Of a DNA stretch of 29,922 nt, positions 2,283 through 3,226 are shown piece by piece. This DNA is from a virus. The translations under genes and the position numbers were made by a program. A model generated the notes under the pieces. That model did no database searches and was not told the origin of the DNA. It saw nothing but the letters and a program-made list of their open reading frames with translations. Position 1 is the stretch's first letter. Every line of letters starts with the position of its first letter. The DNA lies in UHGV virus genome UHGV-1480788. One strand, 5' to 3'.

Positions 2283-2403
2283 TTCATTGCTCCAGACGAA
2301 TGATATGATGCAACCATGATGTGATTGCATACCGAAATGGTACTATTGAGTATTTATCCAGTAGGTTACGATGCCATTCCACCCAACTGGTGAGGCATCA
2401 AGG

Positions 2404-2670
2404 ATGTACAGCAAATACGACGAGGCGCAGTTTCACTTGAGACTTCCGCATGAACTCCACGCGAAGATTAAACAGCGTGCGAAGATGAATAACAGGTCTC
2501 TGAACTCAGAGATAATTGCAGCGATTGAAGAATCATTGGCTAAACAAAGCTCTGCATCTGTTTACATTGACGATGCAGAGCGTATGGCAGAACAACAATC
2601 TGAGATGGTTAAGAAAATTGTCTTTGATACGCTTAAGACCATGTATAGCAATAATAAAAAGGAAACATAG
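2404..2670 (+). CDS. mnt: Mnt-like ribbon-helix-helix repressor
   Basis: Aligns with P22 Mnt as I recall it (FHLRLPHELHAKIKQRAKMNNRSLNSEI.. and DAERMAEQQSEMVKKIVFDTLK vs P22 DAERLADEQSELVKKMVFDTLK). ATG 2404 chosen; in-frame ATG 2371 is an alternative. Confidence 0.8.
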   Translation: MYSKYDEAQFHLRLPHELHAKIKQRAKMNNRSLNSEIIAAIEESLAKQSSASVYIDDAERMAEQQSEMVKKIVFDTLKTMYSNNKKET

Positions 2671-2740
2671 GAATCTAGTTTCCGGATAAAATGGCATAGC
2701 CTTCATGATATCCTGTGAAAAACTAAGGAGAGTTAACCAT

Positions 2741-3226
2741 ATGAAAAAATCACTGTTAATTATCCCGCTTCTGCTGGTTGGATGCGCAAAAGTAAGTGAC
2801 TATCAAGCAAGTTGCGAACAACGCTATCAAAAGCTTAGCGATATGGCTAATTGCCTTGATGCCAGTGTGAAGAACGACTCACGCATGGCATCAGCACCAA
2901 CACCTAAGCTGTATGTCCTTGCTGCAAAGATGCTCGGGCAAGGTGTCGATGAAGGCAAGATAAGTGACGCACAGGCAAGACTTGAGCTTCAGAATCTTTA
3001 TGTTCAATTACAAAGCCAAGAACAAGCCCAACAAATAGCACAAAGCCAAGCATTCCAGCAGGCTTTATTGAATTATCAGGCTGTAAACACAATGCAAGCG
3101 ATCGAGCAAAAAGCGCGCCAGCCTGTTATAACTCAACCTTACCCAACACGCGTTGACACATATACAAACTGCAATTCAGGATTTGGAAACACGGTAACAT
3201 GCAACAGTAGCAGTAACATCAGATAA
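2741..3226 (+). CDS. Predicted outer-membrane lipoprotein, Gln-rich, unknown function (sieA-position moron)
   Basis: AAGGAG RBS at 2725-2730; N-terminus MKKSLLIIPLLLVGC has a canonical lipobox (LVGC) with Ala at +2; Gln-rich segment and Cys-containing C-terminus; no homolog recognised. Confidence 0.8.
   Translation: MKKSLLIIPLLLVGCAKVSDYQASCEQRYQKLSDMANCLDASVKNDSRMASAPTPKLYVLAAKMLGQGVDEGKISDAQARLELQNLYVQLQSQEQAQQIAQSQAFQQALLNYQAVNTMQAIEQKARQPVITQPYPTRVDTYTNCNSGFGNTVTCNSSSNIR

Follow-up and report, generated by a model that had tools for sequence, protein, structure and literature searches.

The accessory region of phage P22, as read from the annotated P22 record, has the order 16 - sieA - orf59a - mnt / arc - ant - 9. 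SieA, encoded there, is one of the few proteins of superinfection exclusion whose target, the ejection proteins, is known. Small lipoprotein morons acting at the envelope are known from other phages. Cor (HK022, phi80, N15, and T1) and T5 Llp are outer-membrane lipoproteins that block FhuA-dependent infection, and Llp masks receptors on the debris of lysed cells, which protects the progeny virions. Lambda Bor/Iss-type prophage lipoproteins modify the envelope to the benefit of the lysogen.

The window analyzed here, the whole 29,922-nucleotide stretch of virus genome UHGV-1480788, contains a region that is best explained as the immI/sieA accessory slot, in decayed form, of a temperate phage of the P22-like (Lederbergvirus) kind, in which an orphan mnt is followed by a cargo ("moron") lipoprotein gene. 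The features of the locus are:

369..2282, minus strand: tailspike gene, left flank (Pfam Head_binding, 4.6e-67; phrog_25325, 1e-126)
2283..2403: intergenic region of 121 bp from tailspike gene to mnt, left over from the control region of immI
2330..2342: candidate Mnt operator TACCGAAATGGTA with 4-bp inverted arms, predicted from sequence
2346..2372, plus strand: Pmnt-like promoter candidate TTGAGT-15 nt-TACGAT, proposed from positional homology to P22 Pmnt (TTGAGA-17-TATCAT)
2349..2377, minus strand: putative weak Pant-like remnant ATGGCA-17 nt-AATACT (8/12 matches in a hexamer scan)
2404..2670, plus strand: mnt, orphan Mnt-type ribbon-helix-helix repressor of 88 aa (Pfam Arc and Repressor_Mnt)
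2671..2740, plus strand: mnt-lipoprotein spacer, 70 nt
2741..3226, plus strand: lipoprotein gene, 161 aa, starting 70 nt past the mnt stop
2741..2785, plus strand: signal peptide of the lipoprotein (aa 1-14), with the lipobox and the predicted acylated Cys15
2786..2965, plus strand: conserved helical head domain, aa 16-75 (pLDDT 93-98)
2966..3115, plus strand: single long helix of 50 residues, aa 76-125 (AlphaFold H76-125, pLDDT 84-98; the alignment agrees)
3158..3214, plus strand: aa 140-158, C-terminal beta-hairpin with the bracketing pair Cys143/Cys154 (strands at 140-146 and 152-158 in the model)
3317..5314, minus strand: right flank, gene of the gp16-like DNA-transfer (ejection) protein (phrog_770, 2.6e-238)

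Both mnt and the lipoprotein gene are antisense to the late operon and are flanked by the tailspike gene on one side and the gp16-like ejection gene on the other. A first, sequence-only reading of this DNA had placed the pair in the sieA-mnt position of P22, and the profiles of the flanking genes, together with the annotated P22 gene order, bear this out. On the left, the true start of the tailspike gene is at 2282 (MSDITANV) and not at the ATG at 2330 chosen by the ORF finder; the boundaries of RefSeq orthologs concur. On the right, the stretch from the lipoprotein gene to the gp16-like gene gave no intrinsic terminator for either strand. The absence of arc and ant, also claimed in that reading, was confirmed: tblastn with P22 SieA, Arc, and Ant gave zero matches across the whole 29.9-kb window, in which Mnt alone matched, and SieA was without a match in any lipoprotein locus. 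A sar-like RNA is absent as well, since no Rfam family was found in the window. The likeness to P22 SieA lies in the slot between gene 16 and mnt, the orientation antisense to the late operon, the small size of an envelope protein of about 160 aa, and probable expression from the prophage. In contrast, SieA is a polytopic inner-membrane protein that has its own promoter and is separated from mnt by a terminator (PMC10883804), whereas the window protein is a predicted outer-membrane lipoprotein. Elsewhere in the window, at 18709..19956, an apparent and complete holin-endolysin-Rz-type lysis cassette is found, judged from ORF sizes and order only.

The assignment of 2404..2670 as a clear Mnt homolog stands. 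Residues 7 to 49 match Pfam Arc (PF03869; 55 bits, cut-off 20.4), residues 57 to 81 match Repressor_Mnt (PF11423; 51.5 bits, cut-off 20.9), the C-terminal tetramerization domain, and the identity to P22 Mnt is 48.7% over aa 6 to 81. It is therefore a true two-domain homolog of the immI repressor. Upstream, 2283..2403 aligns position for position with the Omnt/Pmnt region of P22 and with six further mnt upstream regions, and palindrome and −35 box are found at the relative positions of Omnt and Pmnt: the center of the candidate operator is 8 nt ahead of the ATTG of the −35, the same as in P22 Omnt. TACC-N5-GGTA occurs a single time in the window (0.2 expected), with arms of just 4 bp. These arms are kept in phage VSe13 and partly in Tatumella, and the Mnt proteins of both share the QFHL recognition strand; Mnt proteins of the FN(F/L) type have CCAC-N-GTGG at the equivalent position. 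In the alignment of upstream regions, the candidate operator arms thus covary with the recognition strand, which is QFHL with TACC/GGTA arms here and HFNF with CCAC/GTGG arms in P22. The 15-nt spacer of the Pmnt-like candidate is suboptimal to poor. The putative Pant-like remnant reads through the operator toward the tailspike gene, at the position of P22 Pant. The immI circuit around the Mnt homolog is incomplete: the divergent arc-ant operon, whose promoter Pant is the Mnt target, is absent, as is sar, and the equivalent of Pant is degenerate.

The spacer between mnt and the lipoprotein gene (2671..2740) contains a hairpin without a U-tract, no terminator, and no convincing promoter, and a Shine-Dalgarno sequence, AAGGAG, is found at 2725..2730 ahead of the lipoprotein start. 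An upstream ATG at 2705 is unsupported because all homologs start at MKK and DNA homology across contexts begins at around 2724. Since the 70-nt gap has neither a terminator nor a good promoter, cotranscription of the lipoprotein gene with mnt is the simplest reading of the sequence, and control by Mnt via this cotranscription is plausible. Transcription in this phage would start from the Pmnt-like promoter beside the candidate Mnt operator, and the lipoprotein would then be made in the lysogen. The same mnt-lipoprotein pairing, 17 bp apart, is found in Proteus phage Brookers. In other phages, an opposite-strand gene lies between the lipoprotein gene and mnt, or the lipoprotein gene is behind another ORF, or mnt is missing, and the ortholog in Escherichia coli LF82 is transcribed about 5-fold above mnt in LB (PMC9928086 tables). 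Mnt-type control, as proposed from the sequence, is therefore tenable for this locus and not as a trait of the family. The lipoprotein gene had also been seen as standing "instead" of arc and ant. This replacement was rejected: E. coli ETEC1730 carries ant-arc-mnt together with the lipoprotein gene, and E. coli H1 has an orphan mnt without it, and the loss of arc and ant is thus unrelated.

The lipoprotein itself has the properties ascribed to it at first sight, namely, a length of 161 aa, a textbook lipoprotein signal with Ala at +2, a Gln-rich segment, and a Cys-containing tail. Its N-terminus, MKKSLLIIPLLLVGC followed by AKV, is composed of a basic n-region (MKK), a hydrophobic h-region (SLLIIPLL), and the lipobox LVGC ending in Cys15, which agrees with the pattern [LVI][ASTVI][GAS]C. 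All 40 of the 40 close homologs keep Cys15, and a lipobox is recognizable in 120 of the 132 family members. In E. coli, Asp at +2 is the Lol avoidance signal. Ala is found at +2 in 77 members of the 132-member set and Asp in none, and therefore, sorting to the outer membrane is predicted. The earlier term "surface" protein goes too far, since Ala at +2 predicts outer-membrane sorting only and does not imply exposure. Apart from one cleavable signal peptide, the protein has no hydrophobic helix. The AlphaFold model is confident (overall pLDDT 88.5). In the head domain, the pair Cys25/Cys38 is invariant across the 132 sequences, and mean pairwise identity is 73% for aa 15 to 90 versus 40 to 53% in the rest of the lipoprotein. 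The Gln-rich stretch (around aa 89 to 123), which is variable in sequence and length, is part of the long helix, and 88 of 132 family members, remote ones included, have the hairpin motif T-x-C-x3-G-x4-C. The two conserved Cys pairs fit an oxidizing periplasmic location. Braun's lipoprotein Lpp is an architectural analog only, without homology; compared to Lpp, the window protein has an added helical head and a C-terminal disulfide hairpin and is without the C-terminal Lys for peptidoglycan linkage.

The lipoprotein belongs to PHROG 6067, a family of unknown function (E = 1.6e-110; aa 1 to 161 aligned to profile positions 1 to 161 of 161), which is matched by all 132 members of our family alignment. 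The gene is real and under strong purifying selection: dN/dS is 0.042 against the ortholog of Salmonella phage VSe13, and synonymous sites are saturated against the orthologs of Proteus, Providencia, and Tatumella, with protein identity still at 51 to 60%. Lipobox, Cys pattern, and full length are conserved in 94 clusters (90% identity) and 244 representatives (50% identity). The remote relatives (244 clusters) ride mostly on other mobile elements; their contexts include an integrase-AlpA-primase island, a serine-recombinase/Prim-Pol island, a phage contig, and a place beside a prophage integrase, and one remote homolog is chromosomal, amid housekeeping genes. As the sequence-only reading had supposed, no characterized homolog is at hand. 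Scans of Pfam and NCBIfam found no family above the curated cut-offs, PADLOC models gave no match at E ≤ 0.1, a profile search of PDB sequences returned only noise (E > 0.8), Foldseek against the BFVD viral structures gave no match at E ≤ 0.001, and the literature, searched by accessions, locus tags, and keywords, yielded no functional study of the lipoprotein. Ten remote homologs were likewise without a Pfam match above the curated cut-off.

Cronobacter orthologs are named "GspK" in NCBI. The identity as the type II secretion pseudopilin GspK was considered together with the notion of a misannotated or nonfunctional ORF, for which this name and a weak match to NCBIfam NF037980 (E = 8.6e-4) may be cited. 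The match reaches 18.9 bits where the curated cut-off is 130, over 52 of 307 profile positions, and GspK was rejected; conservation of lipobox, Cys pattern, and length throughout the family and the low dN/dS refute both notions, to which we assign next to no probability. A relationship to Cor was also rejected. Weak matches to the Cor PHROG (phrog_1119) are seen in 7 of 132 family members, with none for the window protein itself, and hhalign aligns HK022 Cor over 25 columns only, those of signal peptide and lipobox. The mature parts of Cor and Llp are unrelated to the window protein, have about 60 to 80 aa, and are without a helical stalk; their carriers are FhuA-using siphophages and not O-antigen-binding podophages.

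In all 12 lipoprotein-carrying P22-like loci, the gene has the tailspike head-binding domain on one side and gp16 on the other, and sieA is present in none of them. A scan of genome contigs gave just 5 loci. Even the L029 member, only 33% identical, occupies the equivalent slot, and at least six enterobacterial genera have P22-like prophages with the gene at this place. The lipoprotein gene and sieA were never together in a locus examined, and the lipoprotein therefore appears to be an alternative slot occupant to SieA, whose gene is present in only 22 of 66 P22-like phages (PMC10883804). With the P22-type tailspike head-binding domain as a marker for P22-like prophages, 1271 copies were counted in 1136 of 5426 complete E. 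coli genomes (about a fifth), and the lipoprotein gene is carried by 186 of the 5426 (~3.4%), with 190 chromosomal copies, and its place is always this slot of a P22-like prophage; it thus fills about 15% of the E. coli slot copies. Carriers include the EHEC O26:H11 strain 11368 and the Crohn's-associated AIEC LF82. The gp16 proteins flanking the lipoprotein are 29 to 98% identical and fall into at least four length classes, and therefore, covariation with, or targeting of, one gp16 type was rejected, and a specific gp16 target is not indicated.

The lipoprotein is a reasonable candidate for a factor that blocks rival phages or changes the host envelope. Of the functions considered, we rate envelope-level superinfection exclusion as the most likely, with a probability somewhat short of even; the lipoprotein would fill the role of SieA in P22 by preventing DNA delivery. 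Once processed by SPase II, the lipoprotein would be sorted by the Lol system to the outer membrane, into its inner leaflet; from there, the long helix would project the hairpin into the periplasm, and binding to a conserved host envelope component or to the conduit of incoming ejection proteins may then prevent DNA delivery. The position and orientation of sieA in P22 argue for exclusion, as do the recurrence in the slot, the carriage as mobile-element cargo, the transcription in LF82, the gap to mnt without a terminator, and the confident model. Counted against it are the poor 15-nt spacer of the Pmnt-like candidate, the 4-bp operator arms, the missed moron cut-off of the LF82 authors, and the lack of a tie to one gp16 type. 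A more far-reaching proposal, which we regard as doubtful, is a widespread mobile-element "stalk" lipoprotein family (at least 244 clusters at 50% identity), with its founding member here, that excludes superinfection by a new mechanism: a conserved envelope component would be the docking site of the head, the helix would present the disulfide-stapled hairpin to obstruct the trans-periplasmic DNA conduit, and the protein would be interchangeable with inner-membrane SieA.

Expression can be judged from LF82_138/GALLYPH_13, the 97.5%-identical ortholog of prophage Gally in LF82, whose log2(fpkm+5) is 6.1 in LB (PMC9928086 S1/S4 tables), 8.0 to 8.1 in B1/B6 samples of bacteria without macrophages, and, inside macrophages, 10.3 (1 h) and 8.6 (6 h); the ejection gene beside it in Gally stays at 3.6 to 4.1 (PMC9928086). 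In LB, the ortholog is 4.5-fold over the prophage background (PMC9928086 tables); the cut-off for morons in that study was 5-fold, and the ortholog was not scored as one. Gally was concluded to be without morons (PMC9928086). The claim of a lysogen-expressed gene thus gains indirect support, with the ortholog transcribed while ejection genes are silent. The ortholog has its own promoter, and therefore, lysogenic expression in the present phage is an extrapolation from another promoter context. Transcription with late genes silent also speaks against a helper of the lytic cycle, which would mask receptors on lysed-cell debris to protect progeny in the manner of T5 Llp or assist in envelope disruption. 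The Llp precedent and the location inside the structural/late region are in its favor, but the gene runs opposite to the late operon, an apparently full lysis cassette is located elsewhere (see above), and homologs are found on satellite-like islands with no lytic genes nearby, making such a role improbable.

The same transcriptome bears on a role in lysogenic conversion or host fitness, in which the envelope would be altered for the lysogen (survival in macrophages or serum, tolerance of envelope stress) and other phages would be unaffected. Compared to LB, the ortholog is up about 18-fold at 1 h in macrophages and about 4-fold in B1/B6. For MB6 versus LB, log2FC is 2.55 (q = 4.7e-27). However, the entire right end of Gally, mnt and the tailspike gene included, is induced in macrophages, and therefore, the induction is not gene specific. 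Pathogenic carriers such as O26:H11 11368 and AIEC LF82, a dN/dS of 0.042 with a head domain strongly conserved across distant hosts, and the chromosomal remote homolog amid housekeeping genes would fit conversion; indeed, the conserved head, the dN/dS of 0.04, and the chromosomal homolog are no less compatible with a host-directed role than with arms-race exclusion. The lipoprotein would share with lambda Bor/Iss the nature of a prophage-expressed outer-membrane lipoprotein moron of enterobacterial lambdoid phages (serum resistance), but window protein and ten remote homologs have no Pfam match to Bor or TraT, and the architecture is different. With zero Pfam matches, the protein is not homologous to Bor, Iss, TraT, or other virulence lipoproteins, the slot is that of a known exclusion gene, and the main text of a CRISPRi gut-colonization screen of LF82 covers other Gally genes and has nothing on the lipoprotein gene. 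In view of both sides, we consider conversion possible, though on the unlikely side.

In sum, PHROG 6067 is a conserved yet uncharacterized family, new but of an already known kind and amenable to testing, at a position of wider relevance: two-thirds of sequenced P22-like phages are without sieA, and the occupants of their 16-9 slot are unstudied. The orphan mnt with its covarying candidate operator offers a natural series for studies of Arc/Mnt DNA-recognition specificity. If the lipoprotein acts in conversion, it would be a prophage contribution to pathogen fitness that has gone unnoticed, in a prophage that the LF82 study had concluded to be free of morons. If phage exclusion is true, it would have a bearing on host range in phage therapy and would add a new family of envelope-level defense.

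Two genes, mnt followed by the lipoprotein gene, lie on the plus strand between the gp16-like gene and the tailspike gene of the window, which is a P22-like (Lederbergvirus) genome segment with its late operon on the minus strand:

369..2282, minus strand: tailspike (Pfam Head_binding, 4.6e-67)
2404..2670, plus strand: mnt, 88 aa (Pfam Arc, 55 bits; PF11423, 51.5 bits)
2741..3226, plus strand: lipoprotein gene, 161 aa (classical lipobox, Ala at +2)
3317..5314, minus strand: gp16-like DNA-transfer protein (phrog_770, 2.6e-238)
5314..6708, minus strand: gp20
6721..7374, minus strand: gp7

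The sequence-only reading had described this pair as an Mnt homolog and a lipoprotein in the place where P22 carries sieA and mnt, and the description was accurate to the base in coordinates, lipobox, Gln-rich stretch, and Cys tail. The 88-aa product matches not only Arc but also PF11423, the Mnt-specific C-terminal domain, and is 48.7% identical to P22 Mnt. The annotated P22 record gives the order 16 - sieA - orf59a - mnt / arc - ant - 9, which confirms the position, and arc and ant are missing as claimed: neither they nor SieA of P22 gave a tblastn match anywhere in the window. In this P22-like phage, the lipoprotein gene thus occupies the sieA slot, downstream of an orphan mnt (one without arc and ant beside it). 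Its product begins with MKKSLLIIPLLLVGC-AKV, followed by the Gln-rich stretch and the tail with Cys. In the record of Gally, a prophage of E. coli LF82 (OV696608.1, L002 3522..4037), the orthologous GALLYPH_13 starts at an ATG further upstream and is 171-172 aa long; for the window, a start at ATG 2705, which adds 12 residues before the signal peptide, was rejected because family alignments and homology breakpoints favor ATG 2741. The neighboring gp16-like protein matches a "transglycosylase" PHROG (phrog_29864, 1.5e-31) over aa 163-384, and its counterpart in a prophage of a metagenome-assembled genome (L027 1762..4422) has a Pfam SLT domain; therefore, some gp16-type ejection proteins may contain a peptidoglycan-cleaving module.

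When 1.84 billion representative proteins were searched with a profile, 244 relatives emerged at E <= 1e-3 (97 at E <= 1e-10), most of them lipoproteins of 125-140 aa. They share a head domain (Q-x2-C-E ... C-L ... K-L-Y-x-L-x-A ... G-x-I-S/T-D-x-D-A-R-x-E-L-Q-x-x-Y), a variable linker, and a C-terminal hairpin motif, T-x-C-x3-G-x4-C. Five Cys, including the lipid-modified one, are present in 95 of the 132 aligned members, and Asp at +2 is present in none of them; the protein is likely anchored in the outer membrane, facing the periplasm. With the 132-sequence alignment, AlphaFold reached a pLDDT of 88.5 and a pTM of 0.62 (pLDDT of 64 with a shallow alignment). The model has a compact head (helices 18-28, 32-45, 47-51, and 53-70) containing the invariant C25/C38 pair, one continuous helix over aa 76-125, and, after a short linker, a beta-hairpin (140-146/152-158) bracketed by C143 and C154. 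Six remote members had informative genomic contexts: a P22-like phage with the gene in the same slot (metagenomic contig L029), an integrase-AlpA-DnaG/AAA_25 primase island beside a T5orf172/MUG113 protein (L020/21), an island with serine recombinase/Prim-Pol (L017), a phage contig with small terminase (L018), a site adjoining a prophage integrase (L024), and a chromosomal site among the housekeeping genes uvrC, pgsA, and earP and the bio operon (L015). The family is therefore mainly mobile-element cargo.

In every P22-like locus examined, the lipoprotein gene is flanked by the tailspike head-binding domain on one side and gp16 on the other, antisense to both, and sieA is absent by tblastn with P22 SieA. 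These loci comprised the phages VSe13, Gally, Brookers, and MS2 LVA; prophages of E. coli O26:H11 11368, LF82, and ETEC1730, Providencia alcalifaciens, and two Tatumella species; one metagenome-assembled genome; and contig L029, with a copy of only 33% identity. Between contexts, DNA homology begins within ~20-40 bp of the start codon, so the gene moves as a tight cassette, and the adjoining gp16 varies from 29 to 98% identity. Linkage to mnt is more variable: Brookers has the same pair as the window, with a gap of 17 bp in Brookers, but an opposite-strand gene separates the two in LF82/Gally and VSe13, and L009 and L029 have the lipoprotein gene without mnt. A tie to loss of arc and ant did not hold, since ETEC1730 has the complete array ant-arc / mnt-orf81-lipoprotein and E. 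coli H1 has an orphan mnt like that of the window without the lipoprotein gene. The gene thus associates with the slot and not with mnt, arc/ant loss, or one ejection protein. ETEC1730 has, besides its full array, a fragment of the mnt C-terminal domain directly downstream of the lipoprotein gene (L012 4539..4676), apparently a scar left by cassette exchange. An orphan mnt lacking arc, ant, and the lipoprotein gene is widespread (compare window 2283..2670 with H1 [L013], Sf101, and IME10); matches to part of that region occur in 440 of 5426 complete E. coli genomes.

How might the pair be controlled? Alignment of the region upstream of mnt from the window, seven other mnt loci, and P22 revealed a conserved layout of a palindrome, ATTG(A/T)(G/A) as the Pmnt -35, and a -10:

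2330..2342: candidate Mnt operator TACCGAAATGGTA, from the alignment with mnt loci and P22
2346..2372, plus strand: weak Pmnt-like promoter candidate, TTGAGT-15-TACGAT
2377..2349, minus strand: weak Pant-like remnant, ATGGCA-17-AATACT, now directed at the tailspike gene

TACC-N5-GGTA occurs once in the 29.9-kb window, at the candidate operator (0.2 expected by chance), whose center is as far from the -35 as that of P22 Omnt. Across the window and L001, L002, L003, L007, L008, and L014, a QFHL recognition strand (Mnt of the window, VSe13, and T. morbirosei) pairs with TAC(C/G)-N5-(G/T)GTA and an (H/Q)FN(F/L) strand (P22, Gally, Brookers, and Providencia) with CCAC-N-GTGG, both palindromes at equal distance from the Pmnt -35. 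This covariation supports a functional Mnt-operator pair, and judging from these sequences the orphan mnt is probably functional; the covariation is also a natural specificity series for DNA recognition in the Arc/Mnt family. In the 70-nt spacer before the lipoprotein gene, a terminator/promoter scan showed a hairpin lacking a U-tract and found no promoter that convinces; therefore, cotranscription with mnt would be the simplest reading in the window. Of the postulated Mnt-type control, this part is plausible, but the linkage is incidental given the other loci. Mnt reportedly represses Pant and thereby favors Pmnt, and a gene behind mnt would thus be made in the lysogen, as is likely for the lipoprotein. 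The arrangement in P22 differs: mnt-orf59a is followed by a terminator, and sieA is transcribed from a promoter of its own (P22 record). A second candidate moron is a 129-aa ORF (phrog_6534, 28543..28932, plus strand), which has a 4-bp overlap with the stop of the CI/C2-type repressor gene (27830..28546, plus strand; phrog_4, 2e-49) and is probably cotranscribed with it in lysogens.

Expression could be followed for GALLYPH_13 (LF82_138), which is 97.5% identical to the window lipoprotein, in the supplementary tables of Misson et al. 2023 (PMC9928086; log2[fpkm+5], two replicates). Values were 6.29/5.96 in LB, 7.87/8.15 and 8.02/8.22 in bacteria without macrophages at 1 h (B1) and 6 h (B6), and 10.29/10.30 and 8.70/8.54 in macrophages at 1 h and 6 h (6 h versus LB, log2FC 2.55, q = 4.7e-27), whereas the adjoining ejection gene stayed at 3.6-4.1 throughout. 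Thus, the prophage does express the orthologue, though from a promoter of its own, and in LB it is ~5 times more abundant than mnt (70 versus 13 normalized counts); a role in the lytic cycle is unlikely. Its level in LB is 4.5-fold above the prophage median, just below the 5-fold cutoff of the authors, who declared Gally moron-free (PMC9928086). The top-expressed gene of the region outside LB (log2 9.4-11 in B1/B6 and macrophages) is GALLYPH_14 (L011 3464..3883, minus strand), a 139-aa hypothetical protein antisense between mnt and the lipoprotein gene in LF82 and absent from the window; in its place, VSe13 has a shorter gene annotated "antirepressor."

An identical lipoprotein sequence is found on at least 1000 public contigs, and 871 sequences belong to its 90% cluster. 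The 94 clusters at 90% identity come from the genera Escherichia, Salmonella, Citrobacter, Cronobacter, Klebsiella, Serratia, Yersinia, Pectobacterium, Morganella, Providencia, Proteus, and Tatumella. Among 5426 complete E. coli genomes, 186 carry the gene (190 copies, all chromosomal); compared with 1271 copies of the P22-type head-binding domain in 1136 genomes, ~15% of detectable P22-like prophage copies carry it. The ORF is not spurious: comparison with the VSe13 orthologue gives a dN/dS of 0.042, and the Proteus, Providencia, and Tatumella proteins are still 51-60% identical although their synonymous sites are saturated. This very strong purifying selection, the macrophage induction in LF82, the chromosomal homologue, and the conserved head domain, which implies a conserved host partner, speak for a role in host conversion, a serious rival that we rate less likely than not and a little below superinfection exclusion.

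Among phage outer-membrane lipoproteins, Cor and Llp block FhuA and thereby cause exclusion. Seven family members gave weak Cor-PHROG matches, but these are confined to signal peptide and lipobox, and kinship was rejected. Pfam scans of the lipoprotein and ten remote homologues gave nothing above any curated cutoff, Bor/Iss and TraT included, and the literature searched by accession, locus tag, or family contained no mention of it, in line with the first reading, which recognized no characterized homolog. The name "type II secretion system protein GspK" of the Cronobacter orthologues (cluster of P0023) in NCBI and UniRef is a propagated misannotation (NCBIfam score of 18.9 bits against a cutoff of 130). 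SieA resembles the lipoprotein in slot, orientation, and prophage expression but is a polytopic inner-membrane protein without sequence similarity to it (tblastn; PMC10883804). Because the gene sits in this slot, apparently never together with sieA, and because the family travels on prophages and satellite-like islands, we tentatively favor superinfection exclusion at the level of the envelope, at somewhat less than an even chance.

In sum, the first reading was largely sound, although its "surface" lipoprotein claims more than the data support, and the lipoprotein gene is an accessory gene of a conserved, uncharacterized, mostly mobile-element-borne lipoprotein family. Prophage lipoprotein morons or exclusion candidates in known mosaic slots are a familiar kind of element; what is new to characterization is the family, which is open to direct testing.
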